NCBI GenBank assembly: GCA_043816785.1
Contig: JBDRHP010000075.1
Location: 1 to 16,363, forward strand
DNA: 16,363 nt
Reading direction: 5' to 3'
Source of the DNA: Candidatus Margulisiibacteriota bacterium
GTDB taxonomy: Bacteria; Margulisbacteria; WOR-1; O2-12-FULL-45-9
This document shows, piece after piece, positions 7,091-15,373 of the stretch. Under the pieces are notes generated by a model. That model searched no databases. It was given only the letters and a program-made list of their open reading frames with translations, and was not told the DNA's origin. A program made the translations under genes and the position numbers. Each line of letters starts with the position of its first letter. Within the stretch, counting starts at the first letter, position 1.

Positions 7091-8017
7091 ATGGCAAAGA
7101 TAGCAAAAGATATCACAGAATTAGTCGGTAGTACACCTTTGGTTAGGCTAAACAAGGTTACTGAAGGTACGGTGGCGGAGGTTGTGGCCAAACTTGAATC
7201 TTTTAATCCCTGTTCGAGCCTCAAGGACCGGGTCGCGGTGGCCATGATCGATGCTGCGGAAAAAGAAGGTAAAATTTGTGAGGGAGCGATTATTGTTGAG
7301 CCGACTTCTGGCAACACGGGGATTGGGCTGGCCTTTGTTTGCGCAGCACGTGGCTATAAACTTATGTTGACTATGCCTGACACCATGAGTATCGAACGTA
7401 GAAATCTATTGAAGGCATTTGGCGCTGACCTTGTTTTAACCGATGGCGCTAAAGGTATGAAGGGCGCGGTGGAAAAGGCCGAAGAATTGGTCAGAACGAC
7501 AAAAAATTCCTTTATGCCACAGCAGTTCAAGAACGTGGCAAATCCTGACATTCACAAAAGGACCACGGCGGAAGAGATCTGGAACGATACGGATGGCAAG
7601 GTCGATATCTTTGTGGCCGGGATCGGTACAGGCGGTACGATCACAGGGGTGGGGCAGGCTTTAAAGTCAAAGAAAAAGAACGTAAAGGTCATAGCAGTTG
7701 AACCCGCCGATTCTCCGGTGCTTTCCGGCGGGCAGCCTGGTCCCCATAAGATCCAGGGGATAGGCGCAGGTTTTGTGCCTGATGTTCTGGACACAAAGAT
7801 ATATGACGAAGTGATCAAAGTTAGCAATGAAGATTCTTTTGAAATCGCTCGCAGGCTTGCTCAAGAAGAAGGTTTGCTTGTAGGGATCTCTTCTGGAGCA
7901 GCGACTTACGCAGCGCTTGAGATCGCCAAGCGTCCGGGAAATAAGGGAAAGTTGATCGTTGTTTTGCTGCCTGATACAGGTGAGCGTTATTTGAGCACGC
8001 CGTTATTTCAGGAGTAG
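7091..8017 (+). CDS. cysK: Cysteine synthase A (O-acetylserine sulfhydrylase)
   Basis: [14 protein letters not shown] with the PLP Lys, [26 protein letters not shown] and [18 protein letters not shown]. Confidence 0.96.
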
Positions 8018-8109
8018 GATTAAGGAAGGTGATTTATTATGTTATGGATTATGGTTTACCCCAGTAATGGGGAGCATCAAATAAATATTTTAAAGGGAGC
8101 TGAGAAATT

Positions 8110-9324
8110 ATGGCAAAAACTATTGCAGAAATAAATGAAAAGATCAAAAGCGGCAAGGCGGTCGTGGTTAATGCTGAGGAGATCATTGAGATCGTGGCAA
8201 AAAAAGGTGTTGAACAGGCGGCCAAAGAAGTTGATGTTGTTACCACTGGAACTTTTGGCCCGATGTGCTCATCCGGAGCCTACTTTAACTTTGGGCATAC
8301 TAAACCCAAGATCAAGGCTGGTGGAGGCAAGGCGTTGCTTAACAATGTTCCTGTTTATGCGGGTTGGGCGGCAGTTGATCTCTATATCGGGGCAACCATT
8401 GCTGCTCAAGATGATCCCCTCAATAAGATCCATCCAGGTGAGTTTGCCTACGGTGGCGCCCATGTCATAGAGGATCTGGTGGCAGGCAAGGATGTTCGCT
8501 TACAGGTGGAAGCCTATGGAACAGATTGTTATCCACGAAAACATTTGGATAGCTGGATAAACATCAAGGATCTGAACGAGGCGGTTCTGTTCAATTCCAG
8601 GAATGCCTATCAGAACTATAATGTTGCGGTCAATCTCTCGGACAAGACCATTTACACTTATCTAGGAACTCTGAAACCGAAGATCGGGAACGCGAATTAC
8701 TGCAGCGCTGGACAGCTTTCGCCCTTGCTCAATGACCCCTACTATAAGACGTTAGGGATCGGCACCAGAATATGGCTCGGTGGTGGAATAGGCTATATAG
8801 CCTGGCAGGGGACCCAGCATAATCCGCATGCTCCGAGATTGGCCAACGGCGTCACCAAGCGTCCTGCAGGAACGCTGGCGGTTATTGGCGATCTAAAGGA
8901 GATGAGCCCGAAGTGGATCAAAGGAGTAAGTTTTGTTGGCTACGGGGTCTCTCTCAATGTTGGCATTGGTATCCCGATACCCATCCTCAACGAAGAGATC
9001 TTGAAGTATACAGCGATAAAGGATGAGGAGATTATCGCCGCGATCGTAGATTATAGCGACGCTTACCCGAACGGCAAATCAGACATTCTGGGGGAAGTGG
9101 ATTATAAAACAGTCAAGAGCGGGGAGATCGAAGTGAAGGGCAAAAAGGTTCCTACCTCAGGAATTTCGAGCTACAAGGCAGCTCTTGAGATTGCCAATGA
9201 TCTCAAGGAAAGCATCAAAAAGGGCAAGTTCCTGTTAACAGAGAAGGTCGCGGATCTGCCGGTCGGAGATACCGCGCCCAAATTCAAACCGCTCAAAGAA
9301 CGCCCGGTAAAGGAGGGGATGTAA
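8110..9324 (+). CDS. DUF39 / L-aspartate semialdehyde sulfurtransferase (homocysteine biosynthesis), no CBS domains
   Basis: KTIAEINEKI, VDVVTTGTFGPMCSSGA, YGTDCYPRK, RNAYQNY, AGQLSPLLNDP and GTQHNP are characteristic of COG1900/DUF39. It is followed by the cognate NIL-ferredoxin. Confidence 0.9.
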   Translation: MAKTIAEINEKIKSGKAVVVNAEEIIEIVAKKGVEQAAKEVDVVTTGTFGPMCSSGAYFNFGHTKPKIKAGGGKALLNNVPVYAGWAAVDLYIGATIAAQDDPLNKIHPGEFAYGGAHVIEDLVAGKDVRLQVEAYGTDCYPRKHLDSWINIKDLNEAVLFNSRNAYQNYNVAVNLSDKTIYTYLGTLKPKIGNANYCSAGQLSPLLNDPYYKTLGIGTRIWLGGGIGYIAWQGTQHNPHAPRLANGVTKRPAGTLAVIGDLKEMSPKWIKGVSFVGYGVSLNVGIGIPIPILNEEILKYTAIKDEEIIAAIVDYSDAYPNGKSDILGEVDYKTVKSGEIEVKGKKVPTSGISSYKAALEIANDLKESIKKGKFLLTEKVADLPVGDTAPKFKPLKERPVKEGM

Positions 9325-9325
9325 G

Positions 9326-9736
9326 ATGTCAGCGAGCAAAATGGTTTTAACCTTTCCCAAGGACAAAATAGGTAAGCCGATTGTCTATAAACTTATCAAG
9401 GATTTTAACCTTAGCTTTAATATAATGAAGGCCAGTATTACTCCAGACCAGGAGGGTCACATGGTTTTGGAGCTGGACGGAGATAAGGCCGAGATTGATA
9501 AAGGGATAAAGCACTTGAAAGACGAAGGGGTTAAGATCGATCCTTTAAGCAAAGAAATAAAGGTTAACTGGGATAAATGCACTCAATGCACTGCCTGTGT
9601 TTCGATCTGCCCGACGGACGCTCTTTATGTTAAGGATCGCCAGACCATGGAAATGGCTTTTGATCCGGAAAAGTGCATTGCTTGTGAGCTGTGTATCCGG
9701 CCTTGTCCACCAAGGGCGATCGAGGTTCATTTCTAG
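9326..9736 (+). CDS. NIL-domain 2x[4Fe-4S] ferredoxin (Asa sulfurtransferase partner)
   Basis: NIL-like N-terminus (PIVYKLIKDFNLSFNIMKA) with CTQCTACVSICP and CIACELCIRPCP. It is 1 nt downstream of the DUF39 gene. Confidence 0.9.
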   Translation: MSASKMVLTFPKDKIGKPIVYKLIKDFNLSFNIMKASITPDQEGHMVLELDGDKAEIDKGIKHLKDEGVKIDPLSKEIKVNWDKCTQCTACVSICPTDALYVKDRQTMEMAFDPEKCIACELCIRPCPPRAIEVHF

Positions 9737-9840: not shown

Positions 9841-10341
9841 ATGCGCGGCAAGCTTTACTATAAGTTAAAGGCCCAATTATTAATAGCTGCTTTGAAAAGA
9901 AAGCTGCCAGATTTTCTTAAATTTTTCGGCTTGGCTTTCTTGCTGCTGGCGCTGGTCTTTATCCCTTCCTCAGCTAAACAGTTAACTTTTTTAAGTAAAT
10001 ACCGGATCGCTTATAGCGATTCTGTTGACGCGACTGCTTATAATTCATTGGAGGGCCAAACAGACAGTACCCCATGGATCACTGCCTCAGGCACTCGTTG
10101 TCGCAAAGGTGTCATAGCTGCCAACCACTTGCCGATTGGCACTAAAGTAATTATTGAGGGTTTTGGTGATCAGATATTTATTGTTGAGGACCGCATGAAC
10201 CGCCGTTACAATAGGCGTATTGATATCTGGTTTAGAAATTATGGGGATGCGCTTGCGTTTGGAAAACGAAAGATCAGATATCACGTTTTAGAGCCTATAG
10301 ATACACCGCCCCTTTCTCTTGCCTCTTTTATACGCATCTAG
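9841..10341 (+). CDS. Membrane-anchored 3D-domain protein (putative peptidoglycan lytic transglycosylase-like)
   Basis: N-terminal hydrophobic helix, then ATAYNS...QTD..PWITASG, VEDRMN and RIDIWF...ALAFGK motifs of the 3D domain. SD GAGGAG. Confidence 0.85.
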   Translation: MRGKLYYKLKAQLLIAALKRKLPDFLKFFGLAFLLLALVFIPSSAKQLTFLSKYRIAYSDSVDATAYNSLEGQTDSTPWITASGTRCRKGVIAANHLPIGTKVIIEGFGDQIFIVEDRMNRRYNRRIDIWFRNYGDALAFGKRKIRYHVLEPIDTPPLSLASFIRI

Positions 10342-10353: not shown

Positions 10354-11169
10354 ATGTCCCCAAAGCGTGCCAAGCTCCAAAATATGCTCAAAGAGATGAA
10401 GAGTGTCTTGATTGCCTTTTCTGGTGGAGTTGACAGCACTTTTTTACTTAAAGTGGCCCGGGACGCTTTGGGCGACAATGTTTTGGCTGTGATCGCTGAA
10501 TCCCCTACATACCCTGAAAGCGAAGTGCGTTGGGCGGAAGAGATGTGCGAAACGTTAGGCGTTAGGCGACGAACGATACAAACTGATGAGTTTGCTGATG
10601 AGAACTTTGTCAGTAATCCCCAAGAACGCTGTTATTTTTGTAAAAAAGAGCTTTTTTCTAAACTTCTTCAGATTGCCAAGGAAAATAATATTCCTTATGT
10701 TCTTGATGGATCAAACTTTGATGATAAATCAGATTATCGGCCAGGCACTCAAGCCAAAAATGAGCTAGGTGTTCGAAGTCCGCTATTAGAATTAGGCTTT
10801 ACCAAACAGGAGATACGTGAACATTCCCAAAAATTAGGTTTGCCCACCTGGGATAAGCCGTCTTATGCGTGTTTGGCTTCTCGGATTCCATATGGGACAA
10901 GGATAACCCAGGGAATATTAGGGAAAATCAGGGAAGGGGAAGGATTCTTAAGATCCCTTGGCTTCAAGCAGTTACGGGTACGCCATCATGGCAATATTGT
11001 GCGTATAGAGGTTGATAAAGATTCTGTTGCTCAGGTTATGGAAGAAGACCTAATGGATAAAATCTCCAAGAAGTTTGAATCCCTTGGCTACACCTACGTG
11101 ACCCTTGACCTCAAAGGCTACCGCACTGGCAGTATGAATGAGGGTTTACCAATAAGTAGACCGGTTTAA
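10354..11169 (+). CDS. larE: LarE-family ATP-dependent sulfur transferase (PP-loop)
   Basis: AFSGGVDS PP-loop, RCYFCK, DYRPG, WDKPSYACLASRIPYG, RVRHHG and LKGYRTGSMN. Confidence 0.92.
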   Translation: MSPKRAKLQNMLKEMKSVLIAFSGGVDSTFLLKVARDALGDNVLAVIAESPTYPESEVRWAEEMCETLGVRRRTIQTDEFADENFVSNPQERCYFCKKELFSKLLQIAKENNIPYVLDGSNFDDKSDYRPGTQAKNELGVRSPLLELGFTKQEIREHSQKLGLPTWDKPSYACLASRIPYGTRITQGILGKIREGEGFLRSLGFKQLRVRHHGNIVRIEVDKDSVAQVMEEDLMDKISKKFESLGYTYVTLDLKGYRTGSMNEGLPISRPV

Positions 11170-11499
11170 GACTAGGTAAATCTGAATTCCCATTAAAACA
11201 ACCCAAACAAAAGCATATTGCGTTCGGAAAGCTTCCAGCTCATCTGTGATTTCTTTTGTTTCTACGCTATAGGGGTAAATTTCCAGTTCCTTAAGGTTCT
11301 CGTTTGTTTTAATGATTGTTTTATCCGGGACTGTTATTACAGAGCAATTACGCAGAGGGTTGGGTATTCTTATAACAACCGGCTCATCATTAGTCCCTTG
11401 GACAGAAAACGGGCTAACGATGCCTGGCTCAAGCTGAATTTCTGCCGCAACCGGCAGACCAATCAAACAGGTTATTAATATATAAATAATGTATCTCAT
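11146..11499 (-). CDS. Hypothetical exported protein with C-terminal TM anchor (paralog 4)
   Basis: Signal-peptide-like N-terminus. C-terminal VETKEITDELEAFRTQYAFVW + TM is shared with its three upstream neighbours. ATGA-coupled to the upstream gene. Confidence 0.8.
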   Translation of the reverse strand: MRYIIYILITCLIGLPVAAEIQLEPGIVSPFSVQGTNDEPVVIRIPNPLRNCSVITVPDKTIIKTNENLKELEIYPYSVETKEITDELEAFRTQYAFVWVVLMGIQIYLVLNRSTYW

Positions 11500-11936
11500 C
11501 TTGATCTAATGGCCATATAAACTCCGGCAAAAAGCATGCTCCAGAGCGCTAAATACTGCAGCCGAAAAACAGAAAATTCATCCCTGATCTTTTTTGTATC
11601 TACTTTTTGCGCGGCAATATTGATTGTTGTTATGTTTGAGCCGACCGGGACCTTGATGGCGGATAAGCCGTAAGACGTTGTGCTTACAGTCACTTCACCG
11701 CTGCTGATTAGATTACCTTTAACGATAATTTGCCATTCATCAGGTGAAAACCGATCATTATTATATTCATAAACGCAGTTTATTTTTGTGCCAGGAAGGA
11801 TAATTAAGGTGCTGCCCTTGGGAACAGTGACATTACTTTTCAGTTCAACCTCACCAGACCAAATTGTGGTAGCTCCAATTGAAGGAATCTCGATTAAGAG
11901 CGATAAGATTAATATGATTGCAATATTTCTGATCAT
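11496..11936 (-). CDS. Hypothetical exported protein with beta-helix-like repeat and C-terminal TM anchor (paralog 3)
   Basis: Signal peptide, WSGEVELKSNVTVPKGSTLIILPGT, then VDTKKIRDEFSVFRLQYLALW + TM + RSR. Confidence 0.82.
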   Translation of the reverse strand: MIRNIAIILILSLLIEIPSIGATTIWSGEVELKSNVTVPKGSTLIILPGTKINCVYEYNNDRFSPDEWQIIVKGNLISSGEVTVSTTSYGLSAIKVPVGSNITTINIAAQKVDTKKIRDEFSVFRLQYLALWSMLFAGVYMAIRSR

Positions 11937-12337
11937 CTGGCCTCAATTAATATAAAAGTGCTGGCAAAAAGCAGTGACCATAGTATAGCATACTGGGCTT
12001 TGAACACATTAAACTCCTCTTTTAAAATTTCCGTGTCAACATCGTATGGCTTGACTTTGATAACTTCAATAGTTGATGAATTCGTTAGCAAAGTGTTGTA
12101 GAAATCAACTCGCTTATCTTCTTCTCCCAGAATGTTGAGTGTGCCAAAGGAAATAATCTTATTTCCATTGGTAAAAACCTTTGTCCCCGGCGCAATAGTG
12201 AGGGACAAGCCGCTTGGGACAATAATGTCTTCAGTTAAATTAATACTGCCTGCCCAAACTGCATTTTTATCAAGCTGTAAAGCCAGGCATTGGCTGGCCA
12301 GGGCCAATATTAAAATAATAGCAATTGTTCTTAACAT
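11933..12337 (-). CDS. Hypothetical exported protein with beta-helix-like repeat and C-terminal TM anchor (paralog 2)
   Basis: Signal peptide, WAGSINLTEDIIVPSGLSLTIAPGT, then VDTEILKEEFNVFKAQYAILW + TM + R. Confidence 0.82.
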   Translation of the reverse strand: MLRTIAIILILALASQCLALQLDKNAVWAGSINLTEDIIVPSGLSLTIAPGTKVFTNGNKIISFGTLNILGEEDKRVDFYNTLLTNSSTIEVIKVKPYDVDTEILKEEFNVFKAQYAILWSLLFASTFILIEAR

Positions 12338-12338
12338 C

Positions 12339-12656
12339 TTATCGATACCTTGTTAACCAGTTATAATAAAGCGCTAAAGATAGATATATGCCAAAGATAA
12401 CGTAACGGTTGCGAAACATTTTAAATTCATTGATTTCATCTTTGATGTCCAATTTTTCCGGCACTACGATTACTTTTTGAGTGTTGGCTGATAGATCGAT
12501 CTTGGCTAATGGGGAAATTACCACTGCTTGGTCAGCAGAGCCGTTTAAAGTAATGTTTTTAGCCCAGCTTTCCTGGGTAATTAGCACGTCTGACCAGGCC
12601 ATTGTATTGGGCAGTAAAATAAATATTAAAATTAAGAGGCAACTGATAATTTTCAT
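12339..12656 (-). CDS. Hypothetical exported protein with C-terminal TM anchor (paralog 1)
   Basis: Start revised to ATG 12656 (MKIISCLL, a signal peptide), 1 nt after the upstream stop. C-terminal LDIKDEINEFKMFRNRYVIF + TM + RYR. Confidence 0.75.
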   Translation of the reverse strand: MKIISCLLILIFILLPNTMAWSDVLITQESWAKNITLNGSADQAVVISPLAKIDLSANTQKVIVVPEKLDIKDEINEFKMFRNRYVIFGIYLSLALYYNWLTRYR

Positions 12657-12657
12657 T

Positions 12658-13239
12658 TTAAAAATAAATGCTCGAAGCAATGTATGGTCCGCGCATCGAA
12701 TCTTCCCCATTAAATTTTAATTCTTTATAACCCAAGCGAACATTGAAATCGCCGTAGTCATCTCCCCAGTAAGCTAGCCAGCCCAGGTCATAACTAAGGA
12801 TGTTGGGGCCAACTACATTGAGATACATGCCCCAAATGGGGGAGAAGCTTCTGGCCCATTTTATCCTGGCATTGAGCTGGTGGATCTCAAAATTCACATT
12901 AGTGGCTTTATCCAGAATGTTGTTGTAGGTCAAATAGGACGGGCCAATGCCTAGGGATGAGTCAGGGTCGTCAGCTGTTTTGTATAGTAATGATATTTCA
13001 TTATAGTTAATTTTCGTGGTTGAGATTTCGCCCACGCCGCCTCTAACTTCCGCATTTAAACGTTTGAATATGTTGCCGCTGCAAACAATGCCGCAGGTAA
13101 CTAAACTTGATTGTGTATTGCCCTTTTTGCTGGAAAACGAAAAATATTCCGGGCCATAGGCAAGGTTGTAGGAAAAAGGGCGGGCCAGAGAGGGGGCTGC
13201 TATAAGTATTACCAGTAAGGCAATAGAGAGGAATTTCAT
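12658..13239 (-). CDS. Putative small outer-membrane beta-barrel protein
   Basis: Start revised to ATG 13239 (MKFLSIALLVILIAAPSLA signal peptide). It has alternating amphipathic strands, FNVRLGYK, and a C-terminal GPYIASSIYF ending in Phe, resembling a BAM beta-signal. Confidence 0.7.
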   Translation of the reverse strand: MKFLSIALLVILIAAPSLARPFSYNLAYGPEYFSFSSKKGNTQSSLVTCGIVCSGNIFKRLNAEVRGGVGEISTTKINYNEISLLYKTADDPDSSLGIGPSYLTYNNILDKATNVNFEIHQLNARIKWARSFSPIWGMYLNVVGPNILSYDLGWLAYWGDDYGDFNVRLGYKELKFNGEDSMRGPYIASSIYF

Positions 13240-13246
13240 TATTTTA

Positions 13247-13275
13247 ATTCTATAGATTGTGGCGCTGAATGTCAA
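13247..13275 (-). promoter_or_regulatory. Sigma70 promoter of the beta-barrel/paralog operon (probably leaderless)
   Basis: On the minus strand: TTGACA (13275-13270), a 17-nt spacer, then TAGAAT (13252-13247). The ATG at 13239 follows after 7 nt. Confidence 0.7.
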
Positions 13276-13294: not shown

Positions 13295-13327
13295 GTAGTT
13301 GACAGAATTAGTCAAGTATAATATAAT
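13295..13327 (+). promoter_or_regulatory. iscR promoter with an overlapping IscR type-1-like operator
   Basis: Consensus TTGACA (13299-13304), a 17-nt spacer, then TATAAT (13322-13327). The palindrome TAGTTGAC-AGAATTA-GTCAAGTAT resembles the IscR type-1 site. Confidence 0.8.
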
Positions 13328-13336
13328 GCGGACGCT

Positions 13337-13735
13337 ATGAAACTCTCAACTAAAGGCAGATACGGAGTAACGGCCATGTTTGATCTGGCAGCTCACGGCA
13401 AAGGCGAGCCGATCACCGCGGCTGATATAGCTGAACGCCAAGCTATTCCTTTAGCCTATTTGGAACAGCTGCTTTCAAAATTAAGGCGGGCCGGGTTGGT
13501 CCGAACGGTCAGGGGCCCTTCAGGTGGTTATATTTTATCCAAAAAGCCGGCCCAAGTAAGCATTGGCGACATTATCCGGGCCACTGATGGTCCGGTGGCT
13601 TTGGCTGATTGTGTGCCGTCATCAGCTACCTGTCCTAAGAGCGGCTGTTGTTCTACCAAGGCGCTCTGGGGGAACTTGAGCGATAAGGTTACCAAAGTTT
13701 TTGATTCGACCAGCTTAAAGGATCTGTGTAAATGA
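13337..13735 (+). CDS. iscR: Rrf2-family regulator, IscR-like with Fe-S Cys ligands
   Basis: MKLSTKGRYGVTAMFDLA, YLEQLLSKLRRAGLV and RGPSGGY, with Cys cluster C-X6-C-X4-CC. It heads the nifS-nifU operon. Confidence 0.88.
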   Translation: MKLSTKGRYGVTAMFDLAAHGKGEPITAADIAERQAIPLAYLEQLLSKLRRAGLVRTVRGPSGGYILSKKPAQVSIGDIIRATDGPVALADCVPSSATCPKSGCCSTKALWGNLSDKVTKVFDSTSLKDLCK

Positions 13736-14892
13736 AGCGAATTTATTTAGATTACGCGGCAACTACGCCAGTGCACCCTGATGTGGCAGCTGAGATGCAG
13801 CCGTATTTCTCTGAGAAGTTCGGTAATCCTTCCAGTATCCATTCTTTTGGCCAGGAAGCCAAAGCGGCTGTGGAACGAGCCAGGGAACAGGTTGCCGGGC
13901 TAATCGCGGCTCAACCTGAGGAGATTGTTTTTACTTCGGGGGGAACGGAGGCCAACAATTTTGCTGTGCAGGGGATTGCCCTGGCTAATGAAGATCGCGG
14001 TAACCATATTATTGTCTCAAAGATCGAGCATCATGCGGTGCTTGAGCCGGCCAGGTTCCTGGAGAATCATGGTTTTAAGGTGACGTTTCTGCCGGTTGAT
14101 AACGACGGACTGGTGCATCCTGAGGATGTCCAAAAAGCGATTACTGATAAAACCATCTTGGTTTCTATCATGCATGCCAATAACGAGATCGGCACGATCG
14201 AGCCAATTGAGGAAATCTCAAAGATTACTAAAGAAAAGGGAGTTTATTTTCATACAGATGCTGTGCAAACAGTTGGGAGTATTCCGGTTGATGTTAATAA
14301 GCTTGGGGTGGATCTGCTGTCTACCTCAGCTCACAAGCTTTATGGCCCTAAAGGTGTCGGGGCTTTATATATTAGAAAGGGAACACGCCTAGAGCCTTTT
14401 ATAAGAGGTGGTGGACAGGAAAGACATCGTCGCGCTTCAACTGAAAATGTTGCTGGGATTGTTGGTTTTGGGAAAGCCTGTGAGCTGGCCAAAAATGAGC
14501 TGCAAAGTCGAATTGATCATTTAATTCCTTTGCGGGATAAATTGATCAAAGGGATCAAAGATAATATTCAGGATGTTGTCTTGAACGGCCATCCTTCGAT
14601 CCGGTTGCCAAAGAATGTTGATATAACGGTCAAATATGTTGAAGGGGAATCCATGCTTTTGAATTTGGATATAGAAGGGATAGCTGTTTCGACTGGGTCG
14701 GCTTGCAGTTCCGGCGCCCTTGAACCGTCACATGTGCTTATGGCAACTGGAATTTCGCCGGAGTTAGCGCATGGCTCGATCCGTTTTACGCTGGGCAGAT
14801 TAACAACCGATGAAGATATTGATCGGGTTTTAGAGGTGTATCCAAAGATCGTGGAAAAACTGCGGAAAATGTCGCCTTTGGTGAAGAAATAA
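13732..14892 (+). CDS. nifS: Cysteine desulfurase, group I (NifS/IscS)
   Basis: YLDYAATTP, GNPSSIH, FTSGGTEANN, HTDAVQ, SAHKLYGPKG (PLP Lys) and STGSACSS (catalytic Cys). Confidence 0.96.
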   Translation: MKRIYLDYAATTPVHPDVAAEMQPYFSEKFGNPSSIHSFGQEAKAAVERAREQVAGLIAAQPEEIVFTSGGTEANNFAVQGIALANEDRGNHIIVSKIEHHAVLEPARFLENHGFKVTFLPVDNDGLVHPEDVQKAITDKTILVSIMHANNEIGTIEPIEEISKITKEKGVYFHTDAVQTVGSIPVDVNKLGVDLLSTSAHKLYGPKGVGALYIRKGTRLEPFIRGGGQERHRRASTENVAGIVGFGKACELAKNELQSRIDHLIPLRDKLIKGIKDNIQDVVLNGHPSIRLPKNVDITVKYVEGESMLLNLDIEGIAVSTGSACSSGALEPSHVLMATGISPELAHGSIRFTLGRLTTDEDIDRVLEVYPKIVEKLRKMSPLVKK

Positions 14893-14932
14893 GCCCCTCG
14901 ACTCGTCCGCCTTCGGCGGACTCGCTCGGGGC
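14893..14932 (+). repeat. REP-like palindromic element with an internal hairpin
   Basis: GCCCCTCGACTC-[GTCCGCCTTCGGCGGACT]-CGCTCGGGGC. It has the same arms as 7037-7079 in the opposite orientation, and an inner perfect stem GTCCGC/GCGGAC. Confidence 0.75.
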
Positions 14933-14947
14933 AAGGAGGTAATTGTA

Positions 14948-15373
14948 ATGGCAGCACCGTATAGTAAGAAAGTAATGGATCATTTTATGCATCCGAGAAA
15001 TGTGGGGGAAATGGAAAATCCAGATGGGATTGGTAAAGTTGGTAATCCGGTTTGCGGAGACATTATGGAAATGTATATCAAGGTAAAAGATAACGTGATT
15101 GTTGACGCCAAGTTTAAAACCTTTGGTTGTGGAGCAGCAATTGCGACTTCTTCCATGGCGACTGAGTTAATCAAAGGAAAAACCATTGAGGAGGCTTTAA
15201 AGTTAACTAATAAAGCAGTGGCTGAGGCTTTAGATGGTCTTCCTCCGGTAAAAATGCATTGTTCAGTCTTGGCTGAGGACGCTTTTAAGGGTGCAGTAGA
15301 TGATTATTTAAAGAAAAAAACCGGCGTGGGGTTACAAGGTTGGAGACCGCATGAAGAGGATCACGAGCACTAA
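14948..15373 (+). CDS. nifU: Fe-S cluster scaffold, single-domain IscU/NifU-N type
   Basis: YSKKVMDHF..PRNVG, GNPVCGD, FKTFGCGAAIATSS and LPPVKMHCS. SD AAGGAGGT. Confidence 0.95.
   Translation: MAAPYSKKVMDHFMHPRNVGEMENPDGIGKVGNPVCGDIMEMYIKVKDNVIVDAKFKTFGCGAAIATSSMATELIKGKTIEEALKLTNKAVAEALDGLPPVKMHCSVLAEDAFKGAVDDYLKKKTGVGLQGWRPHEEDHEH

Follow-up and report, generated by a model that had tools for sequence, protein, structure and literature searches.

A conserved array of small paralogous proteins with C-terminal helices, often encoded beside a predicted β-barrel, in Margulisbacteria

We studied a five-gene operon in a 16,363-nt stretch of DNA from a Candidatus Margulisiibacteriota bacterium (contig JBDRHP010000075.1 of assembly GCA_043816785.1). 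We call the whole stretch the window, and all positions are numbered along it. (The genome it comes from, G000, is 87% complete.) From 13239 to 11146, the minus strand carries five open reading frames (ORFs), whose proteins we refer to as P0001 to P0005 (Table 1). Successive genes are separated by 1 nt and 1 nt and then joined by two ATGA overlaps, which is the tight coupling that the original prediction, made from the letters of the window, had described. P0001 is a predicted outer-membrane β-barrel, and the other four are paralogs that share a C-terminal module. The original prediction offered two explanations for this module: a new sorting signal, or subunits of a hetero-oligomeric envelope complex. 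We tentatively favor the second.

Table 1. Features of the operon, in window coordinates
Feature	Position	Strand	Length	Description
Promoter candidate	13247..13275	-		sigma-70-like; -35 at 13275, 17-nt spacer, -10 ending at 13247; 11/12 consensus bases
P0001	12658..13239	-	193 aa	predicted outer-membrane beta-barrel, "barrel A"
P0002	12339..12656	-	105 aa	class "alpha" subunit
P0002 module	about 12342-12497	-		protein with signal-peptide-like N-terminus, short beta region, C-terminal helix
P0003	11933..12337	-	134 aa	class "beta" subunit
P0003 module	about 11936-12091	-		protein with signal-peptide-like helix, truncated beta-helix head, linker strand, 31-residue C-terminal helix
P0004	11496..11936	-	146 aa	beta-derived subunit
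P0004 module	about 11499-11654	-		layout as in P0003
P0005	11146..11499	-	117 aa	beta-derived subunit
P0005 module	about 11149-11304	-		head shorter than in most orthologues

P0001 appears to be the small β-barrel ending in phenylalanine that had been predicted. Its AlphaFold model has 10 strands (predicted local distance difference test (pLDDT) 79.8; predicted template-modeling score (pTM) 0.71). Its look-alikes in the Atlas are outer-membrane barrels (feature hits 0.95-0.96). The nearest models belong to TIGR04219-family clusters (template-modeling (TM) score 0.80-0.84), and the fold also resembles YfaZ-like and PF13505 small-barrel clusters (TM 0.72-0.84 overall). In sequence, however, P0001 reaches no cut-off in Pfam or NCBIfam, and none of 16 barrel sequences matched TIGR04219 (OMP_w_GlyGly) at E up to 1; this locus gave no match to it either. 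The predicted signal peptide, the even number of long strands in the model, the C-terminal aromatic residue, and a diderm host with Omp85 (there are two Omp85 genes in G000) are all typical of an outer-membrane β-barrel. The terminal Tyr-Phe is invariant among the sequences of this type, which we call barrel A.

All four paralogs (105-146 aa) have a hydrophobic N-terminal helix, with small residues at plausible cleavage sites (by eye), in line with the signal-like helix that was claimed for them. In the AlphaFold model of P0003 (pLDDT 86.6, pTM 0.50), a helix (residues 2-14) is followed by short strands (26-80), an extended linker, and a continuous helix (103-133). A Foldseek search with this model returned nothing at E ≤ 0.001; its best row had E = 0.93. 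For P0004, the Atlas model is similar to the initial turns of right-handed β-helix proteins (PF13229/NosD clusters), but at a TM score of about 0.5, which is below the bar for naming it. Unlike those proteins, the paralogs keep few turns, have no Pfam match, and in many members lack the head altogether.

The four C-terminal motifs quoted in the original prediction are present as written, and the paralogs' tails are homologous (about 30-42% identical). "Near-identical" is too strong a term, though: over the last 46 residues, pairs share between 8/25 and 19/45 identities. We compared these similarities to shuffles that kept the polar and hydrophobic halves separate. Five of the six pairs stood above the shuffles (z = 4.0-16.4), so the significant similarity expected among the C-termini was found for all but P0002/P0003, which was marginal (z = 2.0, p about 0.046). 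The alignment of P0003 with P0004 covers both proteins from end to end (phmmer E = 2.6e-16). Their homology extends beyond the tail, which implies that they are whole-gene paralogs.

The original prediction did not recognize the motif, and neither did we. The paralogs have no match at cut-off in Pfam, NCBIfam, or PHROGs, and PADLOC gave no match for 10 proteins. (We dismissed weak rows for a YPYG domain (E = 0.034), MenI, and FliN as chance matches, and PDB sequence matches to a bromodomain and a designed trefoil as noise.) Across these databases, PDB sequences, and, for P0003, PDB folds, there was no match to a characterized family. Among the papers listed for Margulisbacteria, Saganbacteria, or TIGR04219, no title or abstract opening describes the locus.

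To find relatives, we used a profile built from the last 52 residues of 63 sequences. It matched 17 of the 146 genomes of the phylum, and 15 of these have tandem arrays of 3-6 such genes. (The other two, G031 and G136, have single marginal matches with E about 0.009, and we dropped them.) The window's own genome has 26,702 frames, and none besides the four array genes matches; the next has E = 0.13. The proposed search of this genome and its relatives did turn up arrays, but no clear carriers outside arrays. Against 1.84 billion representative proteins, there were 120 matches, of which 118 are 48-197 aa long and match in their C-terminal part. The two longer matches are artefacts of internal repeats. 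(P0104 and P0142 were excluded from counts as repeat artefacts.) The named homologues are labelled Candidatus Margulisiibacteriota or Saganbacteria, except for one Omnitrophota, one Thermoproteota, and one plain "bacterium." The Thermoproteota sequence (P0086) is a typical beta-class member from a 6.9-kb contig, and its label is likely a binning error. No relative was found in viral contigs, and a scan of species genomes with narrow beta-class patterns gave 8 loci and no new lineage.

The arrays differ in their layout. In layout 1, barrel A is followed by one alpha and three beta genes, and this order is kept in all five genomes that have it (G000, G003, G005, G006, and G105). Layout 2 has five module genes and then another barrel, which we call barrel B (G133, G022, G051, the second array of G005, and the cut array of G035). 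Layout 3 is alpha-beta-gamma-delta with no barrel (G110, G127, G134, G135, and, at a contig end, G045), and the array of G066 has six genes and no barrel. The number of module genes per genome ranges from 3 to 9. We also found 12 metagenome loci: 6 have the whole of layout 1, one is a two-gene fragment, and 5 have all or some of the barrel-less layout. Of the 12, at least three repeat ORFs that had already been found in genomes.

The subunit classes are consistent across arrays, and each array retains several of them. With profiles built from each class of the barrel-less arrays (alpha, beta, gamma, and delta), 9 of the 11 other arrays prove to have a single clear alpha. (The assignment is weak in G051, and G035 is interrupted by a contig end.) The same profiles classify the window's array as an alpha and three beta-type genes. 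In a tree of the 63 modules, which is short of columns and leaves many forks open, 14 arrays each contribute one gene to the clade of P0002 (support 99/92).

A barrel gene adjoins 10 of 16 arrays. Barrel A is in 5 of the 146 genomes and always beside an array, and its mature orthologues are 59% identical. Barrel B is also in 5 genomes and always beside an array, but this tally is circular because it consists of the profile's own training rows. The two barrels cannot be aligned with each other beyond the signal region. The linkage between array and barrel that had been proposed thus holds in all five genomes with the window's type of array, but the barrel is not obligatory across the family. 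The lack of a clear barrel match in some genomes with arrays suggests that the paralog array is the core of the system and the barrel is an accessory.

We then examined the module across the family. In an alignment of 122 members, it consists of two short strands of alternating hydrophobic residues, a proline, a helix cap, and then Glu-Phe-x-x-Phe-Arg/Lys-x-x-Tyr-x-x-x-Trp. The helix is about 31 residues long; its first half is amphipathic and its last 14-18 residues are uncharged. (Counted from the Tyr, the uncharged stretch has a 10-90% range of 14-18 residues, with 17 as the median.) All four window proteins have one or two arginines near the C-terminal end, as had been noticed, but this is not a rule of the family: Lys or Arg follows the hydrophobic stretch in 83 of 121 members and is missing from the other 38. 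The best-conserved columns are the Tyr (101/122), the Trp (96/122), and the Glu (91/122).

The strongest point against a sorting signal is where the conservation lies. Within the four classes, the last 32 residues of homologues are 82, 74, 78, and 89% identical to the window protein, while the middle region is only 47, 51, 56, and 42% identical and the first 22 residues are 32-61% identical. (This comparison excludes P0017, which is near-identical to P0002, and one fragment.) Tails from different classes are just 29-39% identical. The class of a protein by its N-terminus is the same as its class by its C-terminus in 63 of 64 homologues. Of 17 positions in the hydrophobic stretch, 13, 12, 9, and 13 reach 80% conservation or more in the four classes, which covers most faces of the helix. 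Across the family, the periodicity of both conservation and aromatic content is strongest at 96-98 degrees per residue, and four positions on one helix face have Phe, Tyr, or Trp in 64-89% of the 122 members.

These patterns suggest that the paralogs are unequal subunits of one cell-envelope complex, with their C-terminal helices bundled in a membrane. The class-specific helices that are conserved on most faces, the aromatic stripe, the coupled genes, and the single alpha per array all point this way. The membrane is likely the outer one, the role would be binding or scaffolding, and the barrel is a probable accessory. We hold this reading, as a whole, with a little less than even confidence. 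The hetero-oligomer explanation of the original prediction has gained support from the subunit-specific helices, conserved all round, and from the fixed classes, while the complex itself is still something that we infer.

In our proposal, the four chains would be exported by Sec (as predicted) and their signal peptides would be cleaved. One alpha and three beta-type chains would then zip together along the aromatic stripe. The strands of the modules would form a collar, with the truncated β-helix heads on top. The result would have the head-neck-stalk-anchor plan of a trimeric autotransporter adhesin, but built from separate and unequal chains and anchored by helices. Its most likely job would be that of a small binding appendage at the surface or in the periplasm, which is the least supported step.

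The system does not belong with the sorting signals, the trimeric autotransporters, or the Wza-type exporters, yet it borrows features of each. Trimeric autotransporter adhesins such as YadA and SadA have a β-solenoid head, a short neck, and a helical stalk in one exported chain. The paralogs seem to share the head-neck-helix plan, and SadA fragments are among the non-significant Foldseek rows (E = 2.2 and 3.7). But here there are four to six unequal chains rather than a homotrimer, the helix is hydrophobic, and the barrel is a separate and optional gene. Also, there is no Pfam match to the YadA anchor, and the chains end in a helix instead of a fused four-strand barrel. The system would resemble Wza and other outer-membrane polysaccharide export (OPX) proteins, or VirB10, if each subunit's C-terminal helix joins a membrane bundle that lies beneath a periplasmic beta region. 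OPX proteins, though, are lipoproteins that form homo-oligomers, whereas the paralogs have no Pfam match to polysaccharide export proteins, a lipobox-like pattern in only 1 of 114 members, and a low hydrophobic moment in the hydrophobic half. No system that we tested has several unequal single-helix subunits, found across a phylum with either of two unrelated barrels or with none.

Several observations weigh against our proposal. First, the homologue profiles include the tail, which biases them towards proteins with conserved tails, and 14 of the 15 genomes with arrays contributed to the profile of the last 52 residues. (The exception is G051, an out-of-sample genome that has five such genes and then a barrel-like gene.) Second, any contacts among the chains or with the barrel are deduced from sequence patterns. 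Third, the β-helix head is optional: its cap motif is found, by pattern, in 32 of 114 members, and some beta-class members have only 70-94 aa. Since the head is missing from many members, binding by the head cannot be the core function. (An alpha-like member, P0178, has a beta-rich head that is longer and of a different kind, suggesting that heads are exchangeable.) Fourth, five genomes that are 90-99% complete have arrays but no clear match to barrel A or barrel B (there is one weak row, E = 0.08), so the barrel is either dispensable or replaced beyond detection. Fifth, the hydrophobic halves of P0003-P0005 are apolar and not amphipathic, and such helices could halt in the inner membrane. On a hydrophobicity scale with no terms for length or position, their best 15-residue sums are -1.9, -0.2, and -0.4. 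The known outer-membrane helices, as in Wza-like proteins and VirB10, are strongly amphipathic and far more polar (10.1101/2023.10.25.564060).

The question of which membrane holds the helices leads to the main alternative. The paralogs might form a hetero-oligomer in the inner membrane, each chain crossing once with its N-terminus out and its C-terminus in, as a narrow channel or as an accessory that docks on a larger membrane machine; the barrel would then be an upstream partner or just a passenger under the same regulation. In favor of the inner membrane, three of the four window helices are apolar and have a low moment, unlike the Wza-like and VirB10 helices. The frequent basic tail and the barrel-less four-gene arrays in well-assembled genomes also fit, and conservation all around the helix is compatible with burial against another protein. 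On the other hand, the stretch is short for an inner-membrane helix, and across the family its hydrophobicity is marginal: on the same scale (and excluding the truncated P0133), the median of the best 15-residue sums is +0.3 and that of the best 19-residue sums is +4.9, with just 2% of 117 members below zero over 19 residues. Furthermore, the helix of P0002 is polar (15-residue sum +2.4), there is no conserved membrane machine near the arrays, and two unrelated barrels are linked to them. Overall, we consider an inner-membrane complex to be rather unlikely. We favor the outer membrane because of the short uncharged stretch, the frequent lack of a basic tail, the marginal hydrophobicity, and the two unrelated linked barrels.

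A bolder version of the outer-membrane complex has 4-6 paralogs that each thread one short aromatic helix through the outer membrane, forming an asymmetric bundle with swappable β-helix heads, while the small barrel acts as a dock or an insertase. In this detail we think it doubtful. If it were true, the assembly, adhesin-like or channel-like, would count neither among barrel proteins nor among lipoproteins, and it would open a way to study how helical proteins enter the outer membrane. The assembly route of helical outer-membrane proteins is described as unknown (10.1101/2023.10.25.564060). With its helices in the outer membrane, the cassette would be a compact and expressible model of such an assembly. 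Its reach is limited, as only about one in ten genomes of a single phylum, whose bacteria are mostly uncultured, carries this accessory locus.

Could the paralogs instead be the subunits of a filament? Pilin-like or phage-coat-like proteins of reversed polarity (head first) might polymerize from a membrane pool into a filament with a helical core, with the classes being major and minor subunits. The smallest members have about 50 residues past the leader, with an amphipathic and then a hydrophobic helix and a basic end, which is the layout of inovirus major coat proteins, and filament cores also have helices that are conserved on most faces. However, the neighborhoods of the arrays that we read showed no evident gene for an ATPase, a secretin, or a peptidase, and the PHROGs and viral-contig searches gave nothing. 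Also, a 10-stranded barrel is too narrow for a filament to pass. We view a filament as improbable.

Slightly less probable still is a multi-peptide pore former, such as a bacteriocin or an anti-phage membrane effector, whose four helices act jointly. Multi-peptide bacteriocins do need several related peptides together, the arrays are patchily distributed (15 of 146 genomes), and the four-gene cassettes lie in unrelated neighborhoods, some adjoining transposase-like or SIR2-like genes (labels by eye). But PADLOC gave no match, there is no conserved immunity-like or sensor gene, and the layout 1 arrays are stable at one locus in five genomes.

This leaves the sorting signal. In this explanation, the module would be cut off, the small beta-rich heads would be released or re-anchored, and the barrel would aid export. 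Like LPXTG, PEP-CTERM, GlyGly-CTERM, and MYXO-CTERM, the module lies at the C-terminus, with a motif before a stretch that is marginally hydrophobic here, and often a basic end; the paralogs also resemble carriers of such signals in having a putative N-terminal signal peptide and several copies per genome. In addition, the predicted folds nearest to the barrel belong to clusters of a family whose model is named OMP_w_GlyGly, albeit without a match in sequence. We compared the module to the attributes of tripartite signals (taken from section 5 of 10.1101/2023.06.07.544157 and from PMC3237569). The length after the conserved Tyr (median 18 residues) and the 3-9 copies per genome agree with such a signal, but there is no invariant signature (no column reaches 90% in the 63-row alignment) and the carriers are not many unrelated proteins. 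Instead, the homologous carriers are all short, mutual paralogs in one array. A word-index search for longer carriers, in which only 7,999 candidates were scored, gave 8 proteins of 110-134 aa, which is weak evidence. The module's motif also differs in kind, being a long, aromatic, amphipathic helix, and the tail is class-specific and the most conserved part of the protein.

The co-occurring protease or transpeptidase that a sorting signal would call for was not seen either. In G000 (87% complete), there is no match to PF09721, PF04203, PF01694, or PF02517 (exosortase, sortase, rhomboid, and PF02517 proteases), and none was seen beside the arrays. (All 14 of 14 control genomes have a rhomboid, and none was found in G000.) In many members, hardly any head is left to be released. 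The most telling point is that the tail is more conserved than its "cargo," where a disposable, generic tag would be expected to show the opposite; class-specific conservation may be an easy criterion for distinguishing structural tails from sorting tags. Given this, a sorting signal is the least probable of these explanations.

As for how the operon is expressed, the original prediction put one promoter ahead of it and counted 13275 as its first base. A promoter candidate is indeed present (Table 1), but 13275 most likely does not belong to the genes, since the TTG there is the -35 box of this candidate. For this reason, and because homologues begin at the ATG at 13239, that ATG is most likely the start of the barrel gene; it also yields the barrel's signal peptide. 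A scan for promoter sites found 8, while 6.7 were expected in shuffled sequences, so the scan by itself is not evidence for a promoter. Back to back with the candidate is a site with 12/12 sigma-70 consensus bases (13299-13327, plus strand), which points to an Rrf2-like regulator gene. It is possible that the operon and this gene are under shared regulation. Among RNA data, one run contained 11% of the sequence words, and a 246-nt RNA contig is identical to 12545-12790, which spans the junction of the barrel gene and P0002 (depth 2.7, like contigs from neighboring stretches). Because DNA carry-over is possible, we do not count these as evidence of expression.

At its other end, the operon meets larE: the P0005 gene and the convergent larE overlap by 24 nt at their 3' ends (11146-11169). 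The terminal Tyr-Trp is nearly invariant in the P0005 class, despite this overlap. The junction between larE and iscR/iscS/iscU-like genes hosts three different array layouts (window 10354-11169 and 13337-15373; L019:9215-14753; L044:7296-10856). In the window it holds barrel A and its array. G005 has two arrays there, one with barrel A and one with barrel B, which face each other, and in G127 a co-oriented array with no barrel lies between larE and iscS. Elsewhere in the window, 1395-2757 and 7091-9736 (plus strand) hold what we take, by eye, to be a sulfur-related run, with ThiS-like, thioredoxin, ThiF/MoeB-like, and cysteine synthase genes, a 404-aa protein, and its ferredoxin-like partner. 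We considered a link to sulfur metabolism (larE, iscS, and cysK are neighbors) and set it aside because the arrays of seven other genomes sit in unrelated contexts.

Two other neighborhoods are worth describing. At 9841-10341 (plus strand), a gene encodes a membrane-anchored protein of 166 aa that weakly matches models of cell wall-binding Ent (E = 0.06-0.15), and it is also upstream of larE in G005 and G006. Two barrel-less arrays (L043:9456-10907 and L042:4597-5166) are flanked by co-oriented lipoprotein-like genes, one of them with an HExxH motif; these are not conserved in the other arrays.

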